From the NCBI GenBank assembly GCA_051892935.1, contig JBJFGS010000025.1, positions 80,813 through 144,812 of the forward strand: a DNA stretch of 64,000 nucleotides. The letters run 5' to 3'. The DNA comes from Candidatus Coprovivens sp. (GTDB taxonomy: Bacteria; Bacillota_I; Bacilli_A; RF39; UBA660). The translations under genes and the position numbers were made by a program. Positions 1 to 27,125 of this stretch are shown here, in pieces (positions within the stretch are counted from its first letter, which is position 1; the number at the start of each line of letters is the position of its first letter). The notes under the pieces are model-generated. The model saw nothing but the letters and a program-made list of their open reading frames with translations, did not search any database and was not told the DNA's origin.

Positions 1-108
1 CAACTTATAAACGAATTAGAACAAAGAATAGAAGAACTTTCAGAATAAAAAATAAAGAATGTAGCTTAATGCTACATTTTTTTGTATAATAAAAAAGGTG
101 ATTTATAA

Positions 109-2295: not shown

Positions 2296-2312
2296 TAAAA
2301 ATAGGTGATAGT

Positions 2313-2933: not shown

Positions 2934-2948
2934 AAAAGAGTAGAGTTT

Positions 2949-3413
2949 ATGAAAAAAAATAAAAAAGAACTTGATATAAAAGAAAATTTAAAAGATTTAG
3001 GCAAAAAAAGTAATGGATTTTTATCAGAATTTAAGAAATTTATTGCTCGTGGAAACGTAATGGATCTTGCCGTTGGTGTAATTGTTGGAACAGCATTTAC
3101 AAGTATAGTAACAAGTCTATCGAATAATATTTTACTCCCTTTAATAGGAATTGTTATTGGTGGATTTAATTTTAAAGAACTTTCACTTGAATTTACAGCT
3201 TGGGGAAATCCAGTCACATTAAATTATGGTTTATTTATTCAAAGTACTGTAGACTTCCTAATAACAGCATTTTGTGTTTTCGTAATAGTAAAAGTATTAA
3301 ACAACTTATTTAGTAAAAAAGAAAAAAAAGAAGAACCCAAAGCTCCTGTTAAATCAGATGAAGTTAAGTTATTAGAAGAAATTAGAGATTTATTAAAAGA
3401 ATCAAATAAATAA
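2949..3413 (+). CDS. mscL: Large-conductance mechanosensitive channel MscL
   Basis: FKKFIARGNVMDLAVGVIVGTAFTSIV... motif and two TM helices, with a charged C-terminal helix. 154 aa. Confidence 0.9.
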   Translation: MKKNKKELDIKENLKDLGKKSNGFLSEFKKFIARGNVMDLAVGVIVGTAFTSIVTSLSNNILLPLIGIVIGGFNFKELSLEFTAWGNPVTLNYGLFIQSTVDFLITAFCVFVIVKVLNNLFSKKEKKEEPKAPVKSDEVKLLEEIRDLLKESNK

Positions 3414-3471
3414 AAAGTAGATAGAGTAATATGAACTGAACCCCAAAAGTTGGACAGTTTATAAATAGTTT

Positions 3472-4318
3472 CTAATTAGAGGATTGTAACCTGTAATTCA
3501 CGGGAGACAGTCCTTTTAATTTTACTTTAATTCTATCGTAATTATAATAATAAATATAGTCATCAATCGCTTTTATCAAATCATCTAATGTTTTATAATT
3601 ATCCTCTTGGTCATAAAACATTTCTGTTTTAAGTATACCAAAGAAATTTTCCATCATTCCATTATCCATACTATTTCCTTTTCTAGACATACTTTGTTTT
3701 ATACCATTATTTTTTAATCTTTGCTGATAAGATTGATGTTGATATTGCCATCCTTGATCTGAATGAAATATTAATCCTTCTAAATTATTATTTTTATTAA
3801 ATGCTTTATTTAGCATATCATTAATTTGTTCTAAGTTTGGTGATTTAGAAGTATTATAAGAAATTACTTCGCCATTATATCCATCTAATATTGGTGATAA
3901 ATAACATTTTTCACCACGAAGATTAAATTCAGTAACATCTGTATACCATTTTTCATTTGGTTTGTCTGCATAAAAATTTCTATCGATTAAATTATCGGTA
4001 ATTTTACCTATAGTTCCTTTATATGATGAATATTTTCTTTTATTTCTTTTTAACGGTTTTAAACCTAATTTAACCATTATTCTATAGACTTTTTTATGGT
4101 TAACATTATAACCTTAATTTCTTAATTCTAATGTGATTCTACGATAACCATATCTTTCTTTATTATTAATAAATATTTCCTTTATTTTATCATTATTTCC
4201 TTATTTTTATCATCTTTATCTATTTTAGATAAAGTATAATAATATACTGATTTAGCTAAACCAGATATTTTCAGAAGAATCACTAATGGATATATTAGCC
4301 GAAGTTCACTTACAACAT
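3472..4318 (-). pseudogene. IS3-family transposase OrfB (DDE integrase core), disrupted by one frameshift and one in-frame TAA
   Basis: ORF 3472..4077 carries the DDE core (YTDVTEF, HSDQGWQY, ..TEMFY). Translation of 4078-4318 gives the expected OrfB N-terminus (LAKSVYYYTLSK.. then KEIFINNKERYGYRRITLELRN*GYNVNHKKVYRIMVKLGL) only by crossing a frameshift and a TAA stop. Confidence 0.75.
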
Positions 4319-4825
4319 TTACTTTTTCTTCTGTTGTTGATTCTTCCTTGCTTGAACAACGGCTCTCAATTTTTTTGAGTATTCTAGCTCCGCTTTTAAA
4401 TATAAATTTTCTTCTTCCAATCTTTTTATTTTTTCTTTATCTGTTTCATTTTCTTTTTTCTTTGTTACTTTAGGCATAGTTGACCGTCCTCGCTTTCGTT
4501 CAACTATATTATAACCATTTTCTATATAATTTTTAATCCAATTTTGTAACATTCCATAACTTAGTAAACTCATATCCAAAGCAACAGACCATACGGCCTC
4601 ACCATTAATTAAAACTCTATCAATAGCTTCTTGTTTTTCGAATCTTGTATGATTTTTATTTTTACCAGCTCTTAAAATATCTATTCCGTGTTTATCAATT
4701 AGTGCAATTAGATAATTTATTAGACATTTTCTAACTTTATACTTATTTGATAAACTGCATATGGACATTCCATTCTTTTTATCATTATACAAATTTATTT
4801 TATCTTCATAAGTTAATTTTGACAT
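4319..4825 (-). CDS. IS3-family transposase OrfA (HTH DNA-binding, leucine-zipper part)
   Basis: 168 aa, Lys/Glu-rich coiled-coil C-terminus, ends at the AAAAAAG frameshift window typical of IS3 orfAB. Confidence 0.85.
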   Translation of the reverse strand: MSKLTYEDKINLYNDKKNGMSICSLSNKYKVRKCLINYLIALIDKHGIDILRAGKNKNHTRFEKQEAIDRVLINGEAVWSVALDMSLLSYGMLQNWIKNYIENGYNIVERKRGRSTMPKVTKKKENETDKEKIKRLEEENLYLKAELEYSKKLRAVVQARKNQQQKKK

Positions 4826-4900
4826 ATAAAAACCTCGTTTCTATTTTGTCCAAGAAACGGGGTTCATATCAATACTCAAATCTACTTTTTTATTTAATAA

Positions 4901-5812
4901 TTAAACTTTTTCTACTAATTTAATAGATTTATCTACTAAGTAATTAATATTTTCATCTCTACATACTGTATCTTTTTTAGTATGAATTTTATCTATATAT
5001 TCAAAATGCTTTCCTCTAATTACTGAACAAACACCTACACCATTAGTAAAATTAGCTTGATCAGATGGATAAATAGCTCCTTTAGTAATCATATCAGTAA
5101 TAACATTATTATCACTAGTATAAACATCTTTTAACAAATCTACATTTTTAATAGCTTTTTTATTAAAAATAAACATAATTTTATCTCCATCAGAAACACA
5201 ATCAAAATTAATTAGTAGCTTTTCTTTCATAACATCCTTATGCTTAGAAGCAAAAGATGCAGAACCTATAAGTCCAGATTCTTCTAAATCAAACAAGATA
5301 AAAGCAACTTTATCTTTTAAATTATCAGGTATTTTATTAATCATTTCTAGAATAGTTAATACACCAGATGTGTTATCATTAACAGTAGATTTATTTGCTG
5401 GACCAAACATTATTAAACAAACAAATAATATTATAATAAAATCATATATAAGTTCTAATAATAACTCATTAATTGGAAACAAAAATGAAATTCCAATAGT
5501 AATAAAAGCAGAAACAAATACAATTAAGAATAATAATAAAATTTGATATAAAACATAAATAAAAATATTTGTAGGTGTAATAAAATTAGGAACAGGTAAT
5601 ACAGCACAAGTATCATAATGAGCCGTAAATAAAACCTTAGCTTTACTAACATCACCAATAACTATATTTCTACTACCAAAATATCCTTTTTCAATTGATA
5701 TGTCATATTTAGAATCTTTTAATTCCTCTTTAACATAACTAATAAACTCATTTTTTTGTTTTTTATTTTTTCTAACCATATACTTATTTAAAATAGTATC
5801 TTTATACTTCAT
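4901..5812 (-). CDS. M28-family metallopeptidase-like protein with internal TM segments
   Basis: FTAHYDT..., DLEESGLIGS motifs (M28 zinc ligands). Start reassigned to ATG at 5812, behind RBS GGAGGAAG; the ORF-track start at 5917 lacks an RBS. Confidence 0.55.
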   Translation of the reverse strand: MKYKDTILNKYMVRKNKKQKNEFISYVKEELKDSKYDISIEKGYFGSRNIVIGDVSKAKVLFTAHYDTCAVLPVPNFITPTNIFIYVLYQILLLFLIVFVSAFITIGISFLFPINELLLELIYDFIIILFVCLIMFGPANKSTVNDNTSGVLTILEMINKIPDNLKDKVAFILFDLEESGLIGSASFASKHKDVMKEKLLINFDCVSDGDKIMFIFNKKAIKNVDLLKDVYTSDNNVITDMITKGAIYPSDQANFTNGVGVCSVIRGKHFEYIDKIHTKKDTVCRDENINYLVDKSIKLVEKV

Positions 5813-5847
5813 ATAAACTTCCTCCAAAAAAAGAGCAATCATTGCTC

Positions 5848-6018
5848 TTAATAATATATTAACATTCCAAAAATAGATATCAAAGAACCTAAAATCATAA
5901 CAAGAGCCATAATCCAACCAACAATTTTCATTACTAATTTTCTTTTTTGATTGGCAGTCATTTTTTTCTTTTTAGGTTTAATTTTTTCTTCGACTTCATC
6001 TTTAATTTTTTTTGCCAT
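5848..6018 (-). CDS. small Lys-rich protein (56 aa) with C-terminal TM helix
   Basis: Not in the ORF track (<60 aa). Strong RBS GAGGTGA, 7 nt, then ATG. Sequence MAKKIKDEVEEKIKPKKKKMTANQKRKLVMKIVGWIMALVMILGSLISIFGMLIYY. Lies directly upstream of and co-directional with the M28-like gene. Confidence 0.4.
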   Translation of the reverse strand: MAKKIKDEVEEKIKPKKKKMTANQKRKLVMKIVGWIMALVMILGSLISIFGMLIYY

Positions 6019-6102
6019 TTAAAATCACCTCTAACTATATAAACTAAATATAATTTATCATATTTTTCACCTTAAGTAAATAAATTTAATCAGGTGAAAA
6101 AT

Positions 6103-6669
6103 ATGATAAGAATAATATCGAAGTATAAAAATATCTATATATTTCTAATAACACTAGCTATAATCGGTGCAATAAGTGGTTATCTATATTATCAGATTCA
6201 ACCAACTAAAACTAAAGAAGAAATAAAAACAAACGTCAACATCAAAGAAAGCATAAATTCAAGAGTAAATAACTTATCTAAAAACTTAAAAAATAATATA
6301 AAAATATTCTTTTATTCACTATTAATAATACCTATAATAATAAATATCTTTAATATATTTTATAAGCCTTTCGAAATAGGTTTTATTTTTAATTTATTAT
6401 CAAAATATAATATTAAACTATCATTAATATATACAAACATATACTTAAATATTCCTTTTATAATAAGTATCATCCTAACTAGAATAAGTATAACTTTCAT
6501 ATATAATATAATAAAATACATTATAATAAGAGATAATAAATCAAAAGTATTAATAAAAAATACATTTAAAAAATACATTATAATAATAATTATTTCAATA
6601 CTATACGATATATTAATTATCATCACTAGTCCTTATATAAACAGATATTTAATGACATTTATTAAATAA
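6103..6669 (+). CDS. hypothetical polytopic membrane protein
   Basis: Ile/Leu-rich, several predicted TM helices. RBS AGGTGA, 5 nt, then ATG at 6103 (the track's GTG 6094 start lies inside the RBS). Confidence 0.5.
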   Translation: MIRIISKYKNIYIFLITLAIIGAISGYLYYQIQPTKTKEEIKTNVNIKESINSRVNNLSKNLKNNIKIFFYSLLIIPIIINIFNIFYKPFEIGFIFNLLSKYNIKLSLIYTNIYLNIPFIISIILTRISITFIYNIIKYIIIRDNKSKVLIKNTFKKYIIIIIISILYDILIIITSPYINRYLMTFIK

Positions 6670-6700
6670 TAATGTTATAATTAATAATAGAGGTGATGAT

Positions 6701-8368
6701 ATGGAAGCACTAGCTATCAGCGCAGCAAATTTAAATACCATAGAAGAAAACTTAGGAGCAGTTGCCAAAGAATTATCTGGAGTCATAAATAATGTTTCAA
6801 CAGTAAATGATCAAGTAAATAAAGTAGAATCAAAAGTAGAAACACTTAATGACGAAGTAAAAAGCCTAGTTAAAGAAATAAGAGAAACTACTATAATAAC
6901 AAACGCTCGTCAATCTATTATGTATAACAACTCAGAAATAGAAAAAAAATATGGATACTACGATAAAGTAAGAAGAACAACTGAATCCCTATTAGATGCT
7001 ATTGAAAACTCATCAATAAGAAAAAATTCTCTTCAAGAACTAAATCAAGAAATTATTTTAAATAATCCAAATTACTGGTTATCTTCTGCTTTAGCTGCAT
7101 TATCATCATGGTTATTAAACGATCGTACAAATACCGAAAAAGAATTAAATAACGCATTAAAAAAAGATAATAAAAAAACAAGTCTTTTCTTCTGTTTGAT
7201 AAATTTAAAATTACAAAGAACTCAAACATCTTTAAATTGGTTAAATAAATATCTATCTCTTCAAAATCCAACTAAATTAGATAAAGATTTTATAACTATC
7301 CTTGATTTAATTGCAACAGGTACTTTTGGTGATGAAGCCAAAAATACAGTATTAAAAAAAATAAATTTCTGGTTTAATAGTCTTAACTCTGAAAAAGAAA
7401 TACAAAACGAACAAAAAAGCATATGGAGCAATTTTTTAAAAACAAAACAAGATACCGATATAAGAATGCCAAATTTAGAAAACTATTCCCCAGATGTATT
7501 CAAACTAAAAAACAACTTAGCAATAACATCAACTTATATAAATGTCCTTAATCATTTAGAAAACATTATAAAAAGCGACACATCAAATAAAGGAATAAAC
7601 GAAATAATAAATAATTTAATATACGAATACGAATCAAATGAACAAATATATCAAAAAGACAATTTAAAAAATAATCTTATTATAGAATGTAATGGTAATA
7701 GAGAAGAAGCCGAAAAACTATTTAAAAAACAAGAAAGTATTTATAACAATGAAACCAATCTTCTAACCCTTTTAAGCAACATTATAATATATAAAAATTC
7801 ATACAGTATTAGTAATGAAACACAAAAAATAGCTTTATCACTAATGAAAGAATACATCCAAAACGCTATTGAAGAAATGAATGAAGAAATAAGTAAAGAT
7901 AACATCAATATATCAATAGACAAATTTAAAACAACAACCAAAGATGGAAGTAATTTAAAAGAAGCAAAACAAGACTTAGAAGCTTATCTAAGTACGATAT
8001 TTAATGAAGAAGATAAAGATTTAATAATTACTCTTTTAATAATAAATATTCTAGGAATAATAGGAATATTCATAACTTTAAACAGCAAAATTCTTTGTAC
8101 ATTATTAATAATAATAATTCTATTAGGAAATTTCATTTTACTATTTAAATTAAATCAAAGAAATAGGCTAAGAACAAGAGAAAAAAATAAATTGAGAATC
8201 AATATAGGAAATATCCTTGAAAGAGTCTTAGCAGAAACAACAGATTACAACAACTTAATGTTAGAAGACAACGAACATTATATAGAATTAAAAACATATC
8301 TAAACAATCTAGAAGCTGAAAACTACACAAAAAGTAACGACGAAAGAAATATTAATATAGGAGAATAA
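6701..8368 (+). CDS. hypothetical protein, N-terminal coiled coil plus C-terminal double TM hairpin (555 aa)
   Basis: RBS GAGGTGA. Heptad-like N-terminus (VNDQVNKVESKVETLNDEVKSLVKEI). Hydrophobic C-terminal stretches LIITLLIINILGIIGIFITL and LCTLLIIIILLGNFILLF. Confidence 0.55.
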   Translation: MEALAISAANLNTIEENLGAVAKELSGVINNVSTVNDQVNKVESKVETLNDEVKSLVKEIRETTIITNARQSIMYNNSEIEKKYGYYDKVRRTTESLLDAIENSSIRKNSLQELNQEIILNNPNYWLSSALAALSSWLLNDRTNTEKELNNALKKDNKKTSLFFCLINLKLQRTQTSLNWLNKYLSLQNPTKLDKDFITILDLIATGTFGDEAKNTVLKKINFWFNSLNSEKEIQNEQKSIWSNFLKTKQDTDIRMPNLENYSPDVFKLKNNLAITSTYINVLNHLENIIKSDTSNKGINEIINNLIYEYESNEQIYQKDNLKNNLIIECNGNREEAEKLFKKQESIYNNETNLLTLLSNIIIYKNSYSISNETQKIALSLMKEYIQNAIEEMNEEISKDNINISIDKFKTTTKDGSNLKEAKQDLEAYLSTIFNEEDKDLIITLLIINILGIIGIFITLNSKILCTLLIIIILLGNFILLFKLNQRNRLRTREKNKLRINIGNILERVLAETTDYNNLMLEDNEHYIELKTYLNNLEAENYTKSNDERNINIGE

Positions 8369-8370
8369 CT

Positions 8371-8547
8371 ATGAACGAAGAACAATTTAAAAAACTAGAT
8401 ATAGGCAATGAAATAAAAATAAAACCAGCTATTATTAATCTTCCAGAAAAAAAAGATAAAGATAATAAAAATGATGAAAAAATAATAGTCGAACTTCCAA
8501 CATGGAACATAGAACCACCTATAGAAATAAAAAGAGGCGAACAATGA
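8371..8547 (+). CDS. small hypothetical protein (58 aa)
   Basis: RBS GGAGAA 5 nt upstream of ATG, 2 nt after the previous stop. Its stop overlaps the next start (ATGA). Confidence 0.4.
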   Translation: MNEEQFKKLDIGNEIKIKPAIINLPEKKDKDNKNDEKIIVELPTWNIEPPIEIKRGEQ

Positions 8548-8978
8548 CATACGAAGAATGGTTAAATACAATTGAAGAATTAAAACACCCAAACCTAAGC
8601 ATAGATAATCTAAATAAAATAAAAAACACCTCCTTAAATGAAAATATTAATCCTTTATTAATTCCTAAAATAGAAAATTTAGTTAAAGAAAGATTAAACA
8701 ACAGCATAAATAAAATAATTTTAAATCTTAGTGAAATATTTAGCGATATAAACTACTTAGATCTAACACTACTAAATTTTAAAAAAGAAATAAACTATAT
8801 ATTAGAGATAATCTCTATAAAACAATTACCAGAAGAAAAACAAAAAGAATTAAAAGACATGATAAAAGCCGAAAGTAATAATGTAATAGAAATTCTAAAT
8901 AAAGAAGCACAAAAGCTTGATTACACAGGTTCCTTATCATCAATAATAAATAACTATAGAATAAAATGGAGTGAATAA
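8544..8978 (+). CDS. hypothetical protein (144 aa)
   Basis: ATG at 8544 behind RBS AAGAGG, ATGA overlap with the upstream small ORF (translational coupling). The longer track ORF from 8502 overlaps the upstream gene and lacks an RBS. Confidence 0.5.
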   Translation: MTYEEWLNTIEELKHPNLSIDNLNKIKNTSLNENINPLLIPKIENLVKERLNNSINKIILNLSEIFSDINYLDLTLLNFKKEINYILEIISIKQLPEEKQKELKDMIKAESNNVIEILNKEAQKLDYTGSLSSIINNYRIKWSE

Positions 8979-8979
8979 A

Positions 8980-10476
8980 ATGAATTACAATGAAGCAAAA
9001 GAATACTTAAAAAGATATTTAAAAGCAAGAATACCAGTTATTATAATTAATACAGCAGAAAAAAATCGTTCATTAAGATTAATTAAAGAAATTGCCAATG
9101 AAGCAAATATGAATTTTAATTTATATCAAATGTCTCAAGGAATATCTGATTTAAAAACAAATACAATAAAAAGCGAAGATAAAACAATAATGAGTGCCAT
9201 TGATTACATTGTAAACGAAATAAGACACCAAGAAAATAGTAATTTTATCATAAGTGATATATCAGATATATACGAATCAACCACCATTTCAAGGTACCTT
9301 GTAGATGTAATAGAAAAAGCAGAAACCATGTCTGGAGTAATAGTTTTAGTTACAAACGAACCAATTTGGTCAAATATTCAAAGATTAGGAATAACAATCA
9401 AACTAAACTACCCTACAGAATCAGAATTAAAAGAAACAATAATGAACACTATTTCTCCTTATAAAAACCAAATTGAAATAGAATGGGATGAAATAGACTA
9501 TGTAAATGCTGCAACATATCTTCAAGGATTAAGTGAAATGGAAGTAAAAAATATTATCTCATCATTAATTGTAAAAGGTTCAATAAAAAAAGAAGATTTA
9601 AAAGAACTAAAATATGCAAAACAAACTTTATTTAATGAAATAGCAGGGTTAGAAGCTATTGAAGTAGATGATGACTTTCAAATAGCTGGACTAGATAATT
9701 TAAAAGAATGGTTATATGAAAAGAAAACTTTAATGGATCCAGCAAAAAAAGAAGAGCTATCAAAAAGAGGAATTGCTGCTCCTCGAGGAATTCTACTAAC
9801 TGGAGTACCAGGTTGCGGAAAAAGTCTTTGTTCAAAAGCAACAGCAAGTATCTTTAATATTCCCTTATATAGACTTGATTTAGCAACTGTTCAAGGTCAA
9901 TACGTTGGTCAATCAGAAAAACAACTCAAAGAAGCTCTAGATACAGCAGAATACGTTTCCCCTTGTGTTCTTTGGATTGATGAAATAGAAAAAGGATTAA
10001 ACGATTCAAATTCTAGTGTTACATCAAAAATGATTGGCCAATTCCTATTTTGGTTACAAGAATGTGAAAAGCCCGTATTCGTAATAGCATCAGCTAATAG
10101 CGTTGAATCACTACCACCAGAACTAATAAGAAAAGGACGTTTTGATGAAATATTCTTCGTTGATTTACCAAACGCATCCGAAAGAAAACAACTACTAAAA
10201 TTATATTCAAATAAATATTTAAAAGTAGAAATAAGTGAAGAACTAAAAAACAAACTAGTCTCAATAACCGAAGGATTCGCAAGCGCTGATATTGAGGCAA
10301 CAATTCGTAATATAGCATATAAATTAATTGCCAATAAAGATATCGAATTAACAGAAAGACTTATAATAGAAGAATTATCAAAAGTAGTATCACTATCCAA
10401 AACAAATCCAGAAAAAATAGAAAAAATACGAAAATGGGGACAAGAAAGAGCAACCAAAGCATCAAAAGATATATAG
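8980..10476 (+). CDS. Classical AAA+ ATPase with a ~270-aa N-terminal domain of unknown function, no protease domain
   Basis: Walker A GVPGCGKS, Walker B VLWIDEIEKG, second region of homology ASANSVESLPPELIRKGRFDEIFFVDLP (FtsH/Cdc48-clade AAA). No HEXXH. RBS GGAGTGA, 5 nt, then ATG at 8980. Confidence 0.8.
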   Translation: MNYNEAKEYLKRYLKARIPVIIINTAEKNRSLRLIKEIANEANMNFNLYQMSQGISDLKTNTIKSEDKTIMSAIDYIVNEIRHQENSNFIISDISDIYESTTISRYLVDVIEKAETMSGVIVLVTNEPIWSNIQRLGITIKLNYPTESELKETIMNTISPYKNQIEIEWDEIDYVNAATYLQGLSEMEVKNIISSLIVKGSIKKEDLKELKYAKQTLFNEIAGLEAIEVDDDFQIAGLDNLKEWLYEKKTLMDPAKKEELSKRGIAAPRGILLTGVPGCGKSLCSKATASIFNIPLYRLDLATVQGQYVGQSEKQLKEALDTAEYVSPCVLWIDEIEKGLNDSNSSVTSKMIGQFLFWLQECEKPVFVIASANSVESLPPELIRKGRFDEIFFVDLPNASERKQLLKLYSNKYLKVEISEELKNKLVSITEGFASADIEATIRNIAYKLIANKDIELTERLIIEELSKVVSLSKTNPEKIEKIRKWGQERATKASKDI

Positions 10477-10484
10477 GTGATAAA

Positions 10485-11312
10485 ATGAAAGAAAAAAAAG
10501 ACATCAAATATCTTGTCAAAAGTAACAATTACATAGGACTATTATTCTTCGCGCTAGTACTAGCATCACTATTATATATATTAAAAAAAGAAGAAACAAC
10601 ATTTCAAAACATCGAACCAACTATGAATGAAATAACAAACTTACAAGAACAACCTAAAGAAATAACAGAGCCAACAAAAGAAATATCAGATCTCCAAAAC
10701 TATCTAAATACCGGAGATCCAAACACATTTAATATATATCAATCACATTATATATTAAATGAAAAAATAACAAAAGATAACCTTAATAACGAAACTCTTC
10801 TATATATGGCATATAAATATATAGAAAAAACAACCGACTTCACAAACTATATAAACTACCTGGGTTGTGATGAAGCTCAAATCATAGGACTAGATAATCA
10901 AATAACACAATGTGGTGGAACCAAAATAAATGCTACTACTTATACGATGAACAGATATATTACAAAAGAATTATTAAATAAAACAATCAAAAAAATATTT
11001 AACATAAATCTAACTCAATATACAAACTTTTATACAAGTGAAGATAATCTATGTTACTATTTAAAAGACGAATTTTTATGTGTTTCCCATCAAACAAATA
11101 AAATAACAAATTATGGCGAAAAAGAATTTCAAAAAGCATACAAATATAATAATAAAATAGAAATTATAGAAAAATATCATTTCATAAATAATGGAATATA
11201 TTACAAAGGTTTTAATAGCCAAGAAATAGGTGAAGGATATTATAAAAGTACCTTCAATAAAATAAATGGTTCATATTACTGGGAAAGCACAGAGTATTAC
11301 GAAATAAACTAG
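10485..11312 (+). CDS. hypothetical membrane-anchored / secreted protein (Tyr/Asn-rich ectodomain)
   Basis: RBS AGGTGA then ATG. N-terminal KKDIKYLVK + IGLLFFALVLASLLYIL signal anchor. Confidence 0.5.
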   Translation: MKEKKDIKYLVKSNNYIGLLFFALVLASLLYILKKEETTFQNIEPTMNEITNLQEQPKEITEPTKEISDLQNYLNTGDPNTFNIYQSHYILNEKITKDNLNNETLLYMAYKYIEKTTDFTNYINYLGCDEAQIIGLDNQITQCGGTKINATTYTMNRYITKELLNKTIKKIFNINLTQYTNFYTSEDNLCYYLKDEFLCVSHQTNKITNYGEKEFQKAYKYNNKIEIIEKYHFINNGIYYKGFNSQEIGEGYYKSTFNKINGSYYWESTEYYEIN

Positions 11313-11331
11313 TTATTTTAACTAGTTTTTT
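11306..11331 (+). terminator. Intrinsic terminator closing the AAA cluster
   Basis: Perfect hairpin AAACTAGTTA-TT-TAACTAGTTT followed by TTTTC. Confidence 0.6.
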
Positions 11332-11343
11332 CTTGATATTTCC

Positions 11344-11372
11344 TTGACATATCAAGTGTCTAGCAATATAAT
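11344..11372 (+). promoter_or_regulatory. Consensus sigma-A-type promoter (TTGACA-17-TATAAT) for the HTH gene, overlapped by a palindrome
   Basis: TTGACA 11344-11349, 17-bp spacer, TATAAT 11367-11372. Inverted repeat CTTGATAT (11332-11339) / ATATCAAG (11349-11356) straddles the -35. Confidence 0.6.
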
Positions 11373-11408
11373 TAAGATGTAAAATATAAAAGAAAGGAAT
11401 TGGTAAAA

Positions 11409-12176
11409 ATGCGTAAATTAAATGAATTATTTCAAGAATTAGGAATATCTAAAGTAAGATTAGCAAAATATTTAGGAGTTTCAAGACAAATGGTCTATAA
11501 CTATCTAGAACTAAATGATATAAATAAATGGCCAAAAGAAAAAAAATTATTACTATTTAAATTATTAGATATAAATGATAGTAACGCAATAGAAGATATT
11601 CAAGTAACAACAGACTACTTAATGAATGTTGAAAGTAGATTAAATCAAGGAGTAAAAAGTACGGCTGAAATGGATAATGGTTTAAACTTCAAAGGTTTAA
11701 ATAAAGAATCACAAGTACTCCTAAGCGATATAACTTATCTTCTAAAAGAAAAATTAAGTGATGAGACAAAAGAAGAAAACTACTATGCTATTTTATATCT
11801 ATATCATCTACTACAATCTTTAGATAATGTTCCAGAAATTAAATATATATTTGGTTATATGAGTAAAACAACAGGATTTACCAATCCAGAAGAATATAAA
11901 TTTCAAGAAGATAAACAATTTATTTTTGAAGGTATCCTATACTCAGCTTTAACATTATACAACAACGGAGGAGCATCTCGTTCTAAGTTAGCCGAATCAC
12001 ATAAACGTTTTGTACAAGAAATAGAACAAAAAAATGAAGAAAAACTTTCTCGTACACAACAACTAAATACAATAAAAATTCAAGCACTTAAAGAACTAGG
12101 ATTCACAGAAATAAACGAAAGCAATGCTGCCGAAGTATTTGAAAAAATAGCAGAAATTCAATCAAGAAAGGTTTAG
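11409..12176 (+). CDS. XRE-family helix-turn-helix domain protein with an uncharacterised C-terminal domain
   Basis: N-terminus LGISKVRLAKYLGVSRQMVYNY is a Cro/C1-type HTH. ATG 11409 behind AAAGGAA. Own promoter and own terminator (monocistronic). Confidence 0.7.
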   Translation: MRKLNELFQELGISKVRLAKYLGVSRQMVYNYLELNDINKWPKEKKLLLFKLLDINDSNAIEDIQVTTDYLMNVESRLNQGVKSTAEMDNGLNFKGLNKESQVLLSDITYLLKEKLSDETKEENYYAILYLYHLLQSLDNVPEIKYIFGYMSKTTGFTNPEEYKFQEDKQFIFEGILYSALTLYNNGGASRSKLAESHKRFVQEIEQKNEEKLSRTQQLNTIKIQALKELGFTEINESNAAEVFEKIAEIQSRKV

Positions 12177-12193
12177 CAATAAACCTTTTTTAT
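12168..12193 (+). terminator. Intrinsic terminator (hairpin overlapping the stop codon)
   Basis: AAGGTTTA-GCAA-TAAACCTT then TTTTTAT. Confidence 0.55.
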
Positions 12194-12209
12194 AATAAAA
12201 GGAGTATAT

Positions 12210-12791
12210 ATGAAAAAGAAAATAATAATATTATCTAGCTTACTATTATTAATTAGTGGATGTAAAGAAAAAGAAATAGAATGTGAAGAGCAAAAAGAAG
12301 AAACACTAATAAAATATAATAATACAAAAATAACCGAAAAAGATGCTCTAGAAGAAACAAAAGAATATATCTTTCCAGTTATATTTGAAAAAGTAATAGG
12401 AGATATTTTAACAGAAGAAATGAAGGATAAACTCGAAGATGGAAATAACTACGCAGAAGAAACAATAGAAGAACTAAAAACTTACTATGAAGATGAACTT
12501 GAAAAAGCAATAATATCCTATACATCATATAAAACAATAGAAGAATATAAAAGATCAATTTTAATAAGTTATTTACAAGAAGAATATTTTAAAGAATATA
12601 TTAGCAATAAAGAAAAAATAGATTACAACGAAATTACCGATGATAATTTAACTAATTATTATAAAAAATATTATGTTGAGAGTATAAACGACTTATTAAA
12701 AAAATATAATGTAACATTCGAAAATAAAGATTATAAAAAGATGTATGAAAAATATATAGAAGAAAAAGAAACTTACTATAATAATAACTAA
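12210..12791 (+). CDS. putative lipoprotein (Glu/Lys/Tyr-rich)
   Basis: Signal peptide + lipobox LLISGC. RBS AAAGGAG. Confidence 0.6.
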   Translation: MKKKIIILSSLLLLISGCKEKEIECEEQKEETLIKYNNTKITEKDALEETKEYIFPVIFEKVIGDILTEEMKDKLEDGNNYAEETIEELKTYYEDELEKAIISYTSYKTIEEYKRSILISYLQEEYFKEYISNKEKIDYNEITDDNLTNYYKKYYVESINDLLKKYNVTFENKDYKKMYEKYIEEKETYYNNN

Positions 12792-12811
12792 AGCACATTT
12801 TGTGCTTTTTT
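12791..12811 (+). terminator. Intrinsic terminator
   Basis: AAGCACA-TTTT-GTGCTT followed by TTTTTT. Confidence 0.55.
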
Positions 12812-13004
12812 AATAATTTAAAGTGTCCTATTAGCATAATAAGAATAGAGAAGGGGAAGATAAAGAAATTAAAGAAAACATTCTTAAAAATAGCTAAAAA
12901 CGCCCAAAAATATATAACATAAATAAAATTAATAAGTATGAAAAAATAATAATTAAAAAATAAAAAGATCAAACTCATAAACATAACATTTGTTCGCTAG
13001 CAAA

Positions 13005-13053
13005 AATTAAAAAACTCCCCCTATTCAAAAATGCAAAAATTAATAGGGGACTC
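13005..13053 (-). terminator. Candidate intrinsic terminator on the minus strand, ~650 nt downstream of the zupT stop
   Basis: Minus strand reads GAGTCCCCTATT-(16-nt loop)-AATAGGGGGAG followed by TTTTTTAATTTTT. Confidence 0.4.
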
Positions 13054-13099
13054 GAATTAAAAAAATACAAATAAAACATTCAAAAAAAAGATACAATTA

Positions 13100-13355
13100 T
13101 TCAATGAGATAATGAAACTAATCATATAATTAAATCTCGAATCCTAATTTGAAATAACCACAGTCCATAGATTGATAATTTATCAATTATTTAAATGTCG
13201 ATTCCAATTTCATAATACAGATTACGAAATATTAATTCCACGAGATGATAAATTGTTCATCTTTTAAAATCTCGATGCCGATTTAAAACAATAAATAAGA
13301 AACGAGACGATGAAGTATTCATCAAAAGAAATCTCGATTCCTAATTTAAAAGTTT
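13100..13355. repeat. Degenerate tandem array, four units of ~60-74 bp, each ending in a ~24-bp conserved core AAATCTCGAWTCCNAATTTNAAA
   Basis: Cores at ~13132, 13192, 13266, 13329. The inter-core segments are also similar to each other (..CGAGATGATAAATTGTTCATC.. / ..CGAGACGATGAAGTATTCATC..). Each unit contains inverted GAGAT...ATCTC. Confidence 0.6.
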
Positions 13356-13718
13356 AAATAGAAATCAAGCTAAAGAACTAATAAGCTAACAGAAATTCGT
13401 TTCCAATAAATGCCAAACCAAAAACGAACAAATGTATAACATATAAGAAAATAATAATTTTAAATTTTTTCTTAAATTAAAGATTAATTAAATAATAATT
13501 ATATAATATATATTAATAAAATAAAACTAAAGAAAAATAACATAATAAAGAAATAAATTAACAAAATAATTTTCTATATATAAATGAATTTTTAAATTAA
13601 ATATTTAACTTCGTATAATATATATTATGTTAACCAATTAAATATTTTATAAAAAATAAATACTATTATTCATAATAATTATATTTATAAAGTTTAAAAA
13701 AGCTCATATTAAAAACTT

Positions 13719-14447
13719 CTATAAAGATATGATAATTATTATAATTCCAAATATAATCCCCATAATAAGCCATTTATAACATTTATAAGAGATTCCTTCT
13801 TTTAAAATTTTTAAAACACTAAGACTAATCATAATACCACCAGTAATTATTAGAATAATACTCATAATAAAATCATTAATAAAATTATTTAAAAAAATAA
13901 TACTAAATAAAGCACCAAAAACTTCCCCCATAGAACTAATAATAGTCATAAAAAAAGCTTTCCCCCTACTTCCAGTACTATAATAAATAGGTAAACTAAT
14001 ACATATTCCTTCCGGAATATTATGAATCATAATAATAAAACTCATCTTCAAACCTAAAGAAAGATTATTACTACTAGTTAAAGCACAAATAACTCCTTCA
14101 GGAACATTATGAACAAATAAACTAAGCATACTAAGAATACCTATCTTATATAAGCTACTCTCCCCTACAATATTTCTATCAATAACAAAAACAATTATAT
14201 AACCAATCAATAATAAAATTAAACCATACACAAAAATACCAAATATACTAAAATCATTATTAACCAATAATAAACCATCAGGAATTAATTCTATAATAGA
14301 GATTAAAAACATAACTATAAAAGATAACCCCATTGAAAAAGAGATTAACTTATTTTTATATTTTACATCAATAAATAATAGTATATTTCCTAATATAGTA
14401 GCAAATCCAGCTATAAAAGTTATAATTAAAGGATAAATATTTTTCAT
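13719..14447 (-). CDS. zupT: ZIP-family zinc transporter (ZupT-like)
   Basis: Two HNxPEG motifs (VHNVPEGV, IHNIPEGI), 8 predicted TM, 242 aa. Confidence 0.85.
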   Translation of the reverse strand: MKNIYPLIITFIAGFATILGNILLFIDVKYKNKLISFSMGLSFIVMFLISIIELIPDGLLLVNNDFSIFGIFVYGLILLLIGYIIVFVIDRNIVGESSLYKIGILSMLSLFVHNVPEGVICALTSSNNLSLGLKMSFIIMIHNIPEGICISLPIYYSTGSRGKAFFMTIISSMGEVFGALFSIIFLNNFINDFIMSIILIITGGIMISLSVLKILKEGISYKCYKWLIMGIIFGIIIIIISL

Positions 14448-14697: not shown

Positions 14698-15311
14698 ACC
14701 AAACAAGTAACTGCTTCTCTATCTTTTGTCTCACTATTAACATAATAGCAAGTACATAAATTTTCCCTGCAGCTACCACAATCAACAGCAGTAGCACATT
14801 TCGTTAATCTAATTTTCTCGCTATTTTGAGGGCTAACTGAACCAGGGTTATTAACAACTTTTTCTAAACCTGCAACTTTAGTTGCTCCTTGCTTATTTAA
14901 ATTAGTATATGAACTAGGAATAATTATAGTAAAGCCATCATCGCACTTAGTTTCATACAAATTAGTAAGTTTTTCGTTAAGTACTTTAAATTCAGCCAAT
15001 TGAGCGATACATGAATTTAAATTTATATTATCACAATAATATTTATTATCTAAGTAAGTAAACCAACTACCAACTATATCCAAACTATAATTCTGTATTT
15101 CTTTTCTTTTAGCATCTTCTTTTTTATATTCCTCAAGTAATTCTATTACAGGTTCTAGTTCACTTACACTTCCACTAACATAATACTTAGTCAAACTATT
15201 CGTAACAATCTCCGTATAATCTGAAGTTTTAAAATCAATAATTTTTTTACCTCCAAAAATAATTCCTACAATCAATAATATTATTAGTATAATAGGTAAA
15301 GCCTTTTTCAT
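14688..15311 (-). CDS. hypothetical secreted / membrane-anchored protein with Cys-rich C-terminus
   Basis: N-terminal MKKALPIILIILLIVGIIFGG anchor. C-terminal C..C..C.C motifs. Start overlaps the upstream recombinase stop by 4 nt. Confidence 0.5.
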   Translation of the reverse strand: MKKALPIILIILLIVGIIFGGKKIIDFKTSDYTEIVTNSLTKYYVSGSVSELEPVIELLEEYKKEDAKRKEIQNYSLDIVGSWFTYLDNKYYCDNINLNSCIAQLAEFKVLNEKLTNLYETKCDDGFTIIIPSSYTNLNKQGATKVAGLEKVVNNPGSVSPQNSEKIRLTKCATAVDCGSCRENLCTCYYVNSETKDREAVTCLVKK

Positions 15312-16210
15312 AAATCCTCCTTATAAATTTTATTTCTTGGATGACATTGATAATCACTCTTTATTTTCTCATTTACTAAATGAGCATATATTTGTGTAGT
15401 AGATATATCTTCGTGTCCAAGTAATTCTTGTATAATTCTCAAATCTGCCCCATTTTTTAATAAATGAGTAGCAAAAGAATGTCTAAGTACATGAGGAGAT
15501 ACATTTTTCTCTATTCCAGCTCTTTTACATTCTTTCTTTAATATTTTAAAAAATCCTTGCCTACTTATATTAGTCAAACTATTAGAAATAAACAAATAAT
15601 CGGATACTTTATCTTTTAAAATAATATTTCTATATTCCGTAACATAAATAGTCAAATATTTTAAAGCTAAATCAGTAACAGGAACTATTCTTTCCTTTTT
15701 GCCTTTCCCCATAACTCTTATAAAACAATTTTGAACATCAACATCAATTAATTTTAAATTACACAATTCAGTTATTCTAAGCCCTGTTGCATAAAGTAAT
15801 TCTAACATTGCTTTATTTCGATAGTCATAAGGGGTTAATAAGTTTATATTAAGTAACTTATTTACTTCATCTTCAGTTAAATAAGTTGGTAATTTCCTAG
15901 CATTCTTAGGACTAGAAATATTACTACAAGGATTTTCCTTTATAATATTATCATTAACTAAAAAAGTATAAAAAGAATTAATAACTGTTGTATAATGAGA
16001 AATAGTTCTAGAATTCTTATCTTGTATTGTAGCAATATATTTTTTTAAATCATCATAAGTATTATTAACGACATTTCCTTTAAAGAAAATATCAAAGTCT
16101 TTAAGATCATTTAAATAACTCTTTAAAGTATTATTAGATAACTTTCTTTCGAATTCTAAATACTTTAAATACTTATTAATATATTCACTAGGAACATATT
16201 CATCTTTCAT
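15308..16210 (-). CDS. Tyrosine site-specific recombinase, XerD/XerC family
   Basis: ARKLPTYLTEDEV, LLYATGLRITEL, GKGKKERIVPV, HVLRHSFATHLL, LLGHEDISTTQIYAHL: full catalytic R..K..H..R..H..Y set, 300 aa. Confidence 0.85.
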   Translation of the reverse strand: MKDEYVPSEYINKYLKYLEFERKLSNNTLKSYLNDLKDFDIFFKGNVVNNTYDDLKKYIATIQDKNSRTISHYTTVINSFYTFLVNDNIIKENPCSNISSPKNARKLPTYLTEDEVNKLLNINLLTPYDYRNKAMLELLYATGLRITELCNLKLIDVDVQNCFIRVMGKGKKERIVPVTDLALKYLTIYVTEYRNIILKDKVSDYLFISNSLTNISRQGFFKILKKECKRAGIEKNVSPHVLRHSFATHLLKNGADLRIIQELLGHEDISTTQIYAHLVNEKIKSDYQCHPRNKIYKEDL

Positions 16211-20806: not shown

Positions 20807-22813
20807 TTACCCAACAGGTGGAATAAAATTAGGTTTAATTGTTCCATTATTACTAACTTGACCATTTGAAGAAACATTCGGCATCATCATATCTGGTTTA
20901 GAATTATCATAAAAATTAGTAATAACTTGAGATTGAACTTCGTTAGTAGGCTGAGAAACAACATTACCTGTATCATTAGCAGATTTTGCATTTACCTGAG
21001 AAACAGCTACACCTCCACCACTCTGTTGATTACCAGAATTATTAGAATTAGCAGCCGTTCCATGAACTTTCCAACAATTATTAACATCACATGAATTAGA
21101 ATTAGGTGCAGGGTTAGGCATTTCCATTTTTATAACCATTGGTAGCTTAAATGCTCCACCAAATCCAACACAATTACCTGGCTGTAAAATTTTCTGCTTT
21201 TCAATAACATCAGCAGAAATATTAGGTAACATCGTTCTAATATATTCAATATCCTTAGGATGTGTCATTTTAAATATTAAGAAATTACTACATTGAGCAA
21301 TAACTGTTTCTGATATTTCTACAGGTCTTTGCGAAATTATATTAAGTAAAACTCCATACTTACGACCTTCTTTAGCAATTCTATCAAATATATTATATCC
21401 AATTAAGAAAACATCTGCATCCTTTTGAACATATCTATGAGCTTCTTCCAAAAACAAATGAAACGGAATTTGTGCTCTTTGTTTTCTAGTCTTACAAAAA
21501 TCAAAGAATATTCTAGCAATAATTTTAACAATAATCTTCGCTTGAGTATCATCAATATCTTCCAAATTAATATTAATAACTTGTGCTTTCTTATTACCAA
21601 CAGCAACTAACGAAGCAATATATGTTTCATAAGAAATATAAGTATCACATTTATATATATTAGCAATTTTACTATTTATCAAAGAATTTAATCTAACTTT
21701 TAATAACATAGAATCATCATATAATTGTTCATTACTTTGGAAACCTTCACTTATTAAAGTAAACTCTAAAGCCGCAGCAAAATCTCTCATTGAATAAAAA
21801 GCATTAACTGGTTCTTCAGTCATTTCCAAATCTTCATCAATATGTTTTAAAATATAATCAGTAATTAAAACAGATTCTCCAAAATTACCATTACTATCTA
21901 TTTCAAAACACTCAGATAACGTTCTAGTATAACCCAATCCTTGAATAACACTATCAAAATTAAAATCGTTAGTATGGCATACTTCTAATACCTTAAATAT
22001 TTCATTTTTCTTATTAGCAGTAATTTGATTACTATATAAAATAGCAATTAATGCTTTCGCTATTAAATGATCTTTATATCTATTAGCTACTTCATCATCT
22101 TTACTAAATATTCTAGTTAACTTTAAAGACCTTTCTATGATAGGAATTTGACTATGTTTATCTGCTTGTAACATAATAGTTAAATCATCCATGTTTAATA
22201 AATGAAAAGGAATCTTTAATTCGTAATCAGATTCTTCTTGAATATTAGTTGTAATAAATTTATAACTATAATTAGGATTAATCTTACCTAAATCTCTAAA
22301 AGCAGTCTTATATTCACCATAAGCATCAAAAATGAAAATATTAGCATTATAAGAAACTAAATTAGGATTAGAAAAGATATTTTGAACTAATCTTGCAACC
22401 CCACATGACTTACCTGAACCAGTATTTCCAAATACTGCCATATGATTAGCAAATAGATTATTAATATCAGCAAAAACATCATAATCAGTATAAATAGAGC
22501 TTCTTCCTAATTTAAATGTTGTCTCATCATAAACCCCAACAATAGCACTAAGTTCTTGATCATTAATAGTTCTTATTTTACTAGATAAAACAGGCTTTCT
22601 AATAACACCTGATACATATCTCCCATTCATAAATTCCCCAAGAAATCTTATTTTAATTATTTCATCAGTAACTTCTTCTACTTCACCCAAAATAGCTTGA
22701 TTTGGAGCTTCAAAAACTACATGGACATTCATTAAATCTCCCATTTCTTCAGCTTTAGCTATAGTAGTAACGTGAGCTACGTTTCCAGAAATAAATTTAA
22801 TATTACCAAACAT
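20807..22813 (-). CDS. HerA/FtsK-type P-loop ATPase (DUF87-like) with a disordered Asn/Ser/Gly/Gln-rich C-terminal tail
   Basis: Walker A AVFGNTGSGKSCG. HerA-type Walker B HLFLEEAHRYV. N-terminal beta-rich region preceding the P-loop. Start at ATG 22813 behind AGAGGTG. Confidence 0.75.
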   Translation of the reverse strand: MFGNIKFISGNVAHVTTIAKAEEMGDLMNVHVVFEAPNQAILGEVEEVTDEIIKIRFLGEFMNGRYVSGVIRKPVLSSKIRTINDQELSAIVGVYDETTFKLGRSSIYTDYDVFADINNLFANHMAVFGNTGSGKSCGVARLVQNIFSNPNLVSYNANIFIFDAYGEYKTAFRDLGKINPNYSYKFITTNIQEESDYELKIPFHLLNMDDLTIMLQADKHSQIPIIERSLKLTRIFSKDDEVANRYKDHLIAKALIAILYSNQITANKKNEIFKVLEVCHTNDFNFDSVIQGLGYTRTLSECFEIDSNGNFGESVLITDYILKHIDEDLEMTEEPVNAFYSMRDFAAALEFTLISEGFQSNEQLYDDSMLLKVRLNSLINSKIANIYKCDTYISYETYIASLVAVGNKKAQVININLEDIDDTQAKIIVKIIARIFFDFCKTRKQRAQIPFHLFLEEAHRYVQKDADVFLIGYNIFDRIAKEGRKYGVLLNIISQRPVEISETVIAQCSNFLIFKMTHPKDIEYIRTMLPNISADVIEKQKILQPGNCVGFGGAFKLPMVIKMEMPNPAPNSNSCDVNNCWKVHGTAANSNNSGNQQSGGGVAVSQVNAKSANDTGNVVSQPTNEVQSQVITNFYDNSKPDMMMPNVSSNGQVSNNGTIKPNFIPPVG

Positions 22814-22892
22814 AACCAACACCTCTTTTATTATATACAACTATATCTTAACACAAAACAAAAATAAATTAAATAAAAAAGAACTATTTTTC

Positions 22893-27052: not shown

Positions 27053-27125
27053 AAAATCATCACCTATCATTGTATAAATGATAACATAACAAAACATTCC
27101 GTGCAAATTAAAAAAGATTTATATT

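Follow-up and report, generated by a model that had tools for sequence, protein, structure and literature searches.

A tandem repeat array and chromosomal dif as a conserved block in one clade of uncultured gut Bacilli

The locus

The stretch of Candidatus Coprovivens sp. DNA considered here (64 kb of contig JBJFGS010000025.1, hereafter the window) carries, within a single spacer on which the neighbouring genes converge, an array of four degenerate tandem repeat units and a chromosomal dif site that lies 257 bp to the right of the last unit match. The units are members of a repeat family that is conserved and specific to this locus and that, across one clade of uncultured gut Bacilli, makes up a single block with dif. 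A literature search returned no description of such an element, and the array is previously undescribed. Bacilli of this kind are abundant in animal guts and uncultured; Candidatus Coprovivens sp., which is also the database name nearest to the proteins of the window, is placed by NCBI in the Bacillota, as Bacilli incertae sedis, and the G+C content of the window is about 25% over its 64 kb. An earlier, sequence-only reading of the spacer had noticed the repeats. The dif site at 13608-13635 and the conserved array-dif block were absent from that reading, and they provide the decisive context. The features on which the argument rests are as follows.

11409-12176, plus strand: HTH258, gene for a 255-aa helix-turn-helix (HTH) protein, lineage-specific and always on the array side of dif
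Stop at 12791, plus strand: lipoprotein-like open reading frame (ORF) of 193 aa, left flank of the spacer
12792-13718: spacer of 927 bp, between the stop of the lipoprotein ORF and the Zip/ZupT ORF
13100-13160, plus strand: repeat unit 1, degenerate, with palindrome ATGAAACTAATCAT and core AAATCTCGAATCCTAATTT (nhmmer E = 4e-8; MAFFT alignment)
13161-13222, plus strand: repeat unit 2, the most diverged, with palindrome TTGATAA-T-TTATCAA and core AAATGTCGATTCCAATTT (nhmmer E = 4e-7)
13226-13292, plus strand: repeat unit 3, nearest to the family consensus, ATTCCACGAGATGAT-AAATTG-TTCATCT-TTTAAAA-TCTCGATGCCGATTT (nhmmer E = 2e-13)
13293-13356, plus strand: repeat unit 4, CGAGACGATGA-AGTAT-TCATC ... 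AAATCTCGATTCCTAATTTAAAA (nhmmer E = 2e-11; exact 23-nt core at 13329-13351)
13357-13607: very A+T-rich gap from the last unit to dif, poorly conserved in sequence and constrained in length
13608-13635, plus strand: chromosomal dif, ACTTCGTATAA-TATATA-TTATGTTAACC (XerC arm, 6-bp centre, XerD arm; whole site ACTTCGTATAATATATATTATGTTAACC)
13719-14447, minus strand: Zip/ZupT ORF, right flank of the spacer
15308-16210, minus strand: gene for an XerD-like tyrosine recombinase (Pfam Phage_integrase and Phage_int_SAM_1), context outside the array

The four units of the window

The sequence-only reading had described four degenerate units lying head to tail, and both alignment with MAFFT and a profile of the unit confirm them, co-oriented, at 13100-13350. 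Their cores start at 13132, 13193, 13268 and 13329, which gives spacings of 61, 75 and 61 bp, and the units can be aligned over their whole length, inter-core parts included, with a mean column identity of 66% among the four. A profile hidden Markov model, built from the units of the window and of related loci and searched with nhmmer, matches at 13100-13153, 13165-13214, 13234-13288 and 13298-13350 with the E values listed above, and finds no further match in the 64-kb window. The 23-nt core has two matches in the window at up to three mismatches, against 0.01 expected by chance.

Tandem Repeats Finder, a check that had been proposed for the array, did not report it at scores down to 30, because the copies are only about 66% identical, while a second repeat-finding search recovered three of the four. 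The units are thus real but degenerate. Those of the window are among the most degenerate of the family, at 29-50 bits; unit 3, at 49.6 bits, has the top score among all 93 unique units, and its palindrome (13243-13262) departs from AGATGAT-N6-ATCATCT at one position. The internal inverted repeat GAGAT...ATCTC of the original description is present in the sequence. A CRISPR (clustered regularly interspaced short palindromic repeats) array had been set aside in that description on the ground that the inter-core segments are homologous to one another, and the MAFFT alignment bears this out: whole units of 55-61 nt are homologous across 93 copies. A scan of nine neighbouring ORFs against Pfam and NCBIfam found no Cas family.

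The dif site

The site at 13608-13635 is a chromosomal dif of the Firmicute type. It shares 24 of its 28 bases with the dif of B. subtilis, ACTTCCTAGAATATATATTATGTAAACT, as printed in PMC3025954, a type of site that is widely conserved (PMC3025954). The layout is 11-6-11, with a right arm that fits the conserved XerD arm TTATGTTAA; the XerC and XerD arms are assigned after the E. coli layout in PMC2731167. At up to three mismatches this is the single match in the 64-kb window, where 0.00 are expected by chance. The XerD-like gene lies 1.7 kb beyond dif and is syntenic in nearly all related loci; its product scores 327.8 bits against the XerD model TIGR02225 (cut-off 329.6) and 314.9 bits against NF001399 (cut-off 279).

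Genes converge on the spacer, and the GC skew shifts at the dif locus from about 0 to about -0.35. The skews to the left and right of dif do not mirror one another: to the left (1-12800, plus-strand genes) the GC skew is about 0 and the AT skew about +0.27, and to the right (13700-64000, minus-strand genes, plus-strand values) they are about -0.35 and about 0. This suggests that the genes of the left 12.8 kb are replicated as lagging-strand, head-on genes, and that the switch in skew does not fall exactly at dif.

Linkage of the array to dif among relatives

Exact-protein look-ups with ZupT and the lipoprotein led to contigs of the same strain only, whose spacers are 99.6-100% identical where they are mostly covered. 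Samples of the SRR306168xx series, which are rich in this organism, have the identical locus as well. Homologues of the lipoprotein led further, to a 97% strain (L133; L and a number label the related loci and lineages) and to the L135-L140 lineage at about 60% identity. In both, synteny is kept and dif is the same, with seven units as against four in the window. One metagenome scan found the 26-nt core of dif, identical, in 76 contigs. About 25 of these have a G+C content of 59-70%, and many are environmental records of the Joint Genome Institute (Ga...).

The array loci comprise the window, contigs from the dif scan and related contigs reached via a neighbouring gene, all oriented on dif. 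They contain 112 co-oriented unit matches in 31 loci, every one of them 147-622 bp to the left of dif, on the side of the XerC arm, and no unit lies outside this dif-flanking zone in 555 kb of loci. The linkage is thus exclusive, and it is oriented: inverted matches number four, in L190, L171 and L141/L158, each of them a single unit at the far end of its array. The left flank is complete in 26 loci; grouped below 90% identity, these give 20 clusters, treated here as lineages, among which the array varies from two to seven units and the unit-to-unit spacing from 49 to 74 bp. The other contigs that share this dif comprise three sets: high-G+C organisms, a group with a different left-hand gene, and a sister clade that has no array; the first of these fits the wide conservation of the Firmicute-type dif (PMC3025954).

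In array loci the usual order is an AAA-ATPase gene, the 255-aa HTH gene, the block, dif, a 207-aa ORF and the xerD-like gene. The neighbours are not constant. zupT flanks the locus in some lineages only, and an unrelated 207-aa ORF does so in most, so that the long zupT 3' region which the sequence-only reading had offered as a possible setting for the repeats finds no support; in L159 and L204, moreover, terminators separate the downstream operon from the array. Insertions have arisen independently: the lipoprotein gene in the window, and other DNA in each of L183, L168 and L171. In every case the inserted DNA lies between the HTH gene and the hairpin hp1 described below, and none lies between array and dif in the loci compared. 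The distance from the end of the HTH gene to dif accordingly ranges from 510 to 1698 bp, yet the gap from the last unit to dif holds at 146-257 bp. It is therefore with dif, and not with the neighbouring gene, that the block stays. One of the insertions drew separate notice: in L168, about 700-950 bp to the left of dif in the dif-oriented copy, the DNA between the HTH gene and hp1 is a relatively G+C-rich insert of about 250 bp, GGAAATACCCCAAGAGTGAATCAACACTC...CGTTTAGTGGT. Rfam gives no match for it, and it may represent a further structured element.

Searches of phage, plasmid and viral-contig collections with the unit gave no match. A scan of genome contigs with the pattern AAATCTCGAWKCCN{0,1}RATTT proved too degenerate, returning at least 120 unrelated singletons from many phyla, and is uninformative on copy number in Coprovivens. 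The unit profile together with the dif anchor, on the other hand, offers a simple means of finding the locus in metagenomes.

Anatomy of the repeat unit

The consensus of the 93 unique units reads ATTCCAYGAGRTGAT-NARYTN-ATCATCT-TTTNANAT-CTCGATKCC-GATTT, or in short form ATTCCAYGAGRTGAT-N6-ATCATCT-N8-TCTCGATKCCGATTT, over about 55 nt. Its centre is a 20-bp dyad, AGATGAT-N6-ATCATCT, flanked at rigid spacing by ATTCCA/TGGAAT and then CGAG on one side and by TCTCGATKCCGATTT on the other. The distance from the CGAG anchor to the TCTCGATGCC anchor is exactly 29 nt in 76 of 80 units, while linker and centre vary.

The symmetry of the dyad runs through its centre, and A18 and T21 are conserved although they are unable to pair in an RNA hairpin. 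As their central dinucleotide, 26 units have AC, 21 have GT and 20 have AT; AC and GT are mirror images if the dyad is read on double-stranded DNA. The 5' hexamer behaves in the same manner: 47 units have ATTCCA, and 20 have TGGAAT, the reverse complement of this. Within arrays, centres may be shared in a lineage-specific way (TAGTTR in L147 and L204; GAACTA in L141, L171 and L212). The commonest centre is ATGAACTAATCA, a 12-mer that occurs 13 times in 444 kb, always to the left of dif.

Several readings of the unit were dropped. Tiny ORFs within it meet stop codons after 3-12 codons and show nothing conserved. A CsrA-type GGA sponge, DnaA boxes and parS half-sites (TTCCACG) amounted to partial matches to the consensus made by eye, and the same is true of Spo0A, CodY, cre and Fur boxes, of a K-turn or box C/D motif and of a tRNA T-arm relic; none of all these was supported by a test.

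Hairpins, gap and terminators

The block includes more than the units, as the following features of the spacer and of two related loci indicate.

12826-12860: degenerate counterpart of hp1, the second conserved hairpin, GTCCTATTAG...AGAATAGAGAAGGGGAAG, in a block kept in the window, L133 and L135-L140
12986-12996: left arm, ACATTTGTTCG, of an 11-bp perfect inverted repeat whose two arms enclose hp2 and the array, as read from the sequence
13015-13051, minus strand: hp2, a G+C-rich hairpin at the distal edge of the array, CTCCCCCTATT-N16-AATAGGGGAC in the sequence
13425-13435: right arm, CGAACAAATGT, of the 11-bp perfect inverted repeat, partner of 12986-12996
L159, 7235-7261 and 7319-7340, and L204, 3267-3281: terminators beside dif

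The hairpin with a U-run that the sequence-only reading had placed on the minus strand at about 13005-13053 exists, and its position and sequence are conserved in all 20 lineages. Its stem, CCCCCTATT-N16-AATAGGGG, occupies 13017-13049, and an A-tract before the stem on the plus strand becomes a U-tract after the stem on the minus strand; all 20 lineages have 6-9 A in the 12 nt upstream (plus strand). A terminator scan of the window did not call hp2, since its 16-nt loop exceeds 8 nt. Among the 20 lineage representatives, 18 have the hairpin, in the form CCCCTAYY...RRTAGGGG, at 420-505 bp from dif; it stands further out in the lineages of the window (-592) and of L135 (-678). To judge from its sequence, hp2 is possibly a minus-strand or bidirectional terminator. 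Intact hp1 hairpins of the same form, CCCCTAYY...RRTAGGGG, are found 600-690 bp from dif in most other lineages.

Across the 20 lineages the gap between the last unit and dif measures 146-257 bp, a range that narrows to 146-210 bp for 18 of them. About half of the lineages have a small terminator-like hairpin 15-40 bp from dif, and in some lineages dif is bracketed on both sides, within 15-65 bp, by canonical intrinsic-terminator hairpins, as if insulated from transcription. Canonical terminators stand right by dif in L159 and L204, between the downstream operon and the array. The right arm of the 11-bp inverted repeat recurs as CGAACAWATGT in L135-140, L196, L144, L204, L147, L157 and L210 and is missing from many lineages. 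An invertible segment bounded by this repeat was rejected on account of that absence and of the constant orientation of the segment in all assemblies.

RNA structure and transcription

Every unit is capable of forming a hairpin, and the minus strand at 12995-13420 folds with z = -2.3. Neither candidate helix, however, shows compensatory covariation: 82% of cells are paired in helix i and 88% in helix ii, values that column shuffles reach in 437 and 195 of 500 trials, so that pairing is no better than in shuffled columns. An unbiased mutual-information scan of the units likewise gave neighbour and subfamily signals only, with no base-pair-like covariation. This failure still leaves room for a young RNA conserved in sequence.

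In a wobble-pair test of strand, mismatches in the inverted repeat of the units comprise 43 G.T and 33 A.C, with no clear bias towards either strand. The most frequent sequence variants are G at GAGRTGAT (22 of 76 units) and T at YGAG (33 of 76). Both preserve pairing on the plus strand only, whereas the terminator evidence favours the minus strand, which weakens the case for an RNA on either one. On the minus strand no promoter signal precedes the array at a fixed position, and promoter-like matches are at or below the level of shuffles. The Rfam check that had been proposed for the spacer covered the window and 14 related loci, in which no model reached its gathering score; at E <= 10 the spacer gave only three chance-level matches.

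The helix-turn-helix gene and the sister clade

One neighbouring gene suggests itself as the possible source of a factor that may act on the block. HTH258 has an N-terminal helix-turn-helix and an all-helical remainder; it matches no NCBIfam family, and in Pfam only HTH families below threshold, including HTH_ParB at E = 0.005. In array loci the protein is 81-95% identical in amino acid sequence, against 68-87% for Xer and 27-47% for the 207-aa neighbour. The family is narrow, with 318 cluster representatives in 1.84 billion proteins, and in every relative examined its gene adjoins dif. From these sequence comparisons HTH258 appears to be an uncharacterised, clade-restricted and apparently essential-looking factor, and it is the sole, and a weak, candidate for a factor acting in trans on the array.

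The sister clade (L142, L161, L166, L167, L182, L191, L200 and L213) complicates this picture. Its HTH protein is 56-60% identical to that of the array clade and has an identical recognition helix. A single hairpin, GCATCAATGAACTAATCAATTAATGC, stands 51 bp from dif, and its core, ATGAACTAATCA, is the same 12-mer that lies inside the units of the array clade. HTH258 may therefore be a possible reader of the palindrome centre, though not one specific for the full unit. The sister-clade spacer also contains two or three tandem palindromes, CCTTATT-N9-AATAAGG, which are different repeats at the equivalent position.

What the array may do

We tentatively favour the view, which we rate at a little under an even chance, that the repeats work at the level of DNA, as an array of sites bound by protein, and make up a single conserved block with dif. 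The units presumably act as DNA rather than as RNA; this is ranked above a minus-strand small RNA (sRNA) in view of the rigid spacing, the symmetry at the level of sequence, and the mirror variants that would be expected of a double-stranded DNA site for a symmetric protein. The exclusive and oriented linkage to dif, the way in which the block stays with dif, the conservation of sequence and not of structure, and the 12-mer shared with the sister clade also count in its favour. If so, some protein probably binds the units, and the function of the array would concern dif. The cis-acting element would then be an array of two to seven sequence-specific binding sites, which two flanking G+C-rich hairpins and an A+T-rich gap of 150-250 bp join in one block with dif, on the side of the XerC arm. 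A dimeric DNA-binding protein would occupy the dyads of the units, and the bound units would build a nucleoprotein complex beside dif that might assist or control the resolution of dimers by Xer, or else serve to organise or insulate the terminus. The neighbouring HTH258 would be the only candidate for the binder, and a weak one. That array, hairpins, gap and dif make up a new module for dimer resolution or for the terminus, in which a lineage-specific protein, possibly HTH258, builds an accessory synapse or a barrier to forks or transcription, is a more specific proposition and an unlikely one. A protein-binding array and a repeat-containing sRNA were both among the functions named in the sequence-only reading, and these are the two hypotheses that remain live; the third, a decayed end of a mobile element, finds no support.

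A number of observations weigh against a protein-binding array that serves dif. The centre of the dif in the window is 6 bp, a type that is tied to no need for accessory elements and is regarded as accessory-independent (PMC2731167). The 49-74 bp between units is not helically phased, and a curvature check of the gap found no 10-11-bp periodicity of A-tracts. The conserved hp2, with its minus-strand U-tract at the edge of the array, is more readily understood as part of a transcription unit than of an element acting purely as DNA. The units of the window diverge from those of the 97% strain L133 even at core positions, and this degeneracy suggests relaxed constraint in that lineage. The whole region is syntenic, so the adjacency of array and dif could be a matter of inheritance and not of function. 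In the sister clade about 300 bp separate the HTH gene from dif and contain no units, and the array is thus dispensable in at least one related clade. The identical recognition helix in that unit-less clade means that HTH258 is not specific for the units, which weakens it as a unit-specific binder, and its AlphaFold model is too poor to interpret (predicted local distance difference test 56, predicted template-modelling score 0.38).

The same observations can be read in terms of RNA. A minus-strand sRNA, or the long 3' end of a minus-strand transcript, built of repeated hairpin modules, is a possible if doubtful explanation. Transcription would start in the A+T-rich gap to the left of dif or, in the lineage of the window, arrive by read-through from zupT, cross the units and stop at hp2 (13051-13015), and repeated conserved single-stranded boxes on the minus strand, AAAUCGGCAUCGAGAU and CUCGUGGAAU, would serve to titrate some RNA-binding protein or to pair with targets, as multi-hairpin sponge RNAs do. 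The placement of hp2 speaks for this: in all 20 lineages the hairpin, with its U-tract, marks the distal edge of the main array, the closest unit ends 5-45 nt away, and the lone unit beyond hp2 in L190, L171 and L141/L158 is inverted and faces it, like convergent genes sharing a terminator. L159 and L204 have terminators of their own by dif, and hp2 would be superfluous there if nothing started between it and dif. The capacity of all units to form hairpins, the z-score of the minus strand and the variation of unit number among lineages, as in sponge RNAs, also agree with an RNA. Set against these points are the want of compensatory covariation, of a minus-strand promoter signal at a fixed position or of promoter-like matches above shuffles, and of any Rfam match beyond chance even at E <= 10; the A.C mismatches that the two commonest variants give on the minus strand; and loops of 9-16 nt in hp2, which are atypical of intrinsic terminators. 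Mirror-image variants of centre and 5' hexamer are, moreover, odd for a functional RNA. If the array is transcribed in this way, it would represent a new multi-module sRNA family in what is, to our knowledge, a group with almost no known regulatory RNAs.

The other explanations fare less well. A functionless tandem duplication, homogenised by unequal crossing-over and gene conversion in a large, unconstrained convergent spacer, would account for the range of two to seven units, for the lineage-specific centres shared within arrays (a sign of concerted evolution), for the degenerate units of the window with their core differences from L133, and for a sister clade that lacks the array. It nevertheless seems quite unlikely, as gene conversion homogenises within a genome and cannot hold a consensus across genomes, and here 20 lineages retain the same consensus of 55 nt, its internal spacing invariant, at a fixed position and orientation relative to dif, while the surrounding spacer is unalignable and the 207-aa protein is 27-47% identical. 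The sequence-only reading would have taken a core that is unique to the locus, untranscribed and unconserved as debris of slippage or duplication; the core is indeed unique to the locus, yet its strong conservation across lineages argues that the array is not neutral debris. Improbable, too, is a Ter-like barrier at which co-oriented units bind a terminator protein and stop forks from one direction near dif, for all that the locus lies at the terminus, where genes converge and GC skew changes, that the units share one orientation on one side of dif with a single inverted far-end copy in three lineages, and that a conserved gene for a DNA-binding protein adjoins the sites, as rtp adjoins TerI/II in B. 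subtilis. The nine neighbouring ORFs scanned against Pfam and NCBIfam contain no RTP or Tus domain, the 0.1-11 kb available on the other side of dif holds no opposed sites, the sister clade does without an array, and the lagging-strand-like skews of the left 12.8 kb (GC about 0, AT +0.27) suggest that leftward forks normally pass the locus. The dif site is a known hot spot of integration (PMC10132070 and PMC6744903, for example), and in the window hp2 and the array stand between the arms of the 11-bp perfect inverted repeat; a remnant of a dif-using mobile element (an Xer-exploiting integrative mobile element (IMEX), a dif-targeting insertion sequence (IS) or a miniature inverted-repeat transposable element (MITE)), or a member of a dispersed family like the repetitive extragenic palindromic (REP) or BOX elements, was also weighed. 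We regard this as highly improbable: the window has only one dif-like site even at three mismatches, no unit lies beyond the dif-flanking zone in 555 kb, phage, plasmid and viral-contig collections contain nothing similar, no transposase or integrase other than Xer stands beside the array (the IS3-like ORFs at 3472-4825 are 8 kb off), the bracketing repeat is missing from many lineages, and the constant orientation in all assemblies gives no sign of inversion. Neutral debris, CRISPR, dispersed repeats and mobile-element ends are all disfavoured.

Other features of the window

Two further regions of the window deserve mention in their own right. At 3472-4825, on the minus strand, two ORFs in overlapping frames, one HTH-type of 168 aa and one resembling an integrase core of 201 aa, have the look of the IS3 family by eye. 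At 22893-24722 and 24803-27106, also on the minus strand, lie adjacent large paralogous ORFs of 609 and 767 aa, which share motifs such as S(S/L)DDINDLLLCYSDH and (E)YSYLLEELKKPI and follow an ORF for a 677-aa P-loop (GNTGSGKS) ATPase at 20807-22840 that is HerA/FtsK-like by eye.

Comparison with known systems

Several families of bacterial repeats invite comparison. BOX, REP and bacterial interspersed mosaic elements (BIME) resemble the array in being modular, hairpin-forming intergenic repeats that are able to form local tandem modules, but they are dispersed in tens to hundreds of copies, whereas the units here occupy a single locus; with all units 147-622 bp to the left of dif in the 555 kb searched, dispersed repeats of the REP, BIME, BOX and MITE kinds were rejected. 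The description of the array as iteron-like, with internal inverted repeats, in the sequence-only reading is borne out. An iteron-type origin was rejected all the same: the units are about 55 nt and 49-74 bp apart, as against iterons of about 17-22 bp at a spacing of about 22 bp, the HTH protein matches no Rep family, and genes converge on a locus whose skew is terminus-like.

Sponge RNAs such as CsrB and RsmZ share a variable number of hairpin modules, each with a short conserved motif, and a terminator at the end. The array differs from them in lacking a GGA-in-loop motif, covariation, a promoter and an Rfam match, and we know of no CsrA-type partner in this clade. The TerI/TerII-rtp region of B. 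subtilis likewise places terminus repeats next to the gene for a small DNA-binding protein, though the ORFs scanned show no RTP homology and the units are direct repeats on one side of dif rather than an opposed pair. The sopC locus of F, a centromere-like array, is built of 43-bp units in tandem, and SopB binds a short inverted repeat in each. Like it, the array is composed of tandem, co-oriented units of tens of bp, variable in number, each with a dyad site. The units of sopC, however, are near-identical and regular and lie on a plasmid beside the partition operon, while those of the array are degenerate and irregular (49-74 bp) and lie at a chromosomal terminus with no ParA or ParB genes nearby.

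Together with sopC and the Ter/rtp region, the systems that would come nearest to the array in their working include cer (ColE1) and psi (pSC101), where accessory DNA is bound by architectural proteins and gives selectivity to recombination. That DNA is non-coding and lies on the XerC-arm side, just as the array is always on the XerC-arm side of dif. It is also about 180 bp long, abuts the core and has no tandem palindromes, in contrast to a repetitive array that is separated by a gap of 146-257 bp and reaches out to 622 bp, and the site itself is here a chromosomal dif with the 6-bp centre that is tied to no accessory requirement (PMC2731167). Chromosomal dif is generally thought to act without flanking accessory DNA, under the control of FtsK. 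An oriented array of binding sites kept at a constrained distance across a whole clade would challenge that view, and, if proteins do bind it, would point to a new terminus-associated DNA-binding factor. Should the array, hairpins, gap and dif prove to be a single module, it would constitute a chromosomal counterpart of plasmid cer and psi, or a new fork trap, in genome-reduced gut Bacilli.

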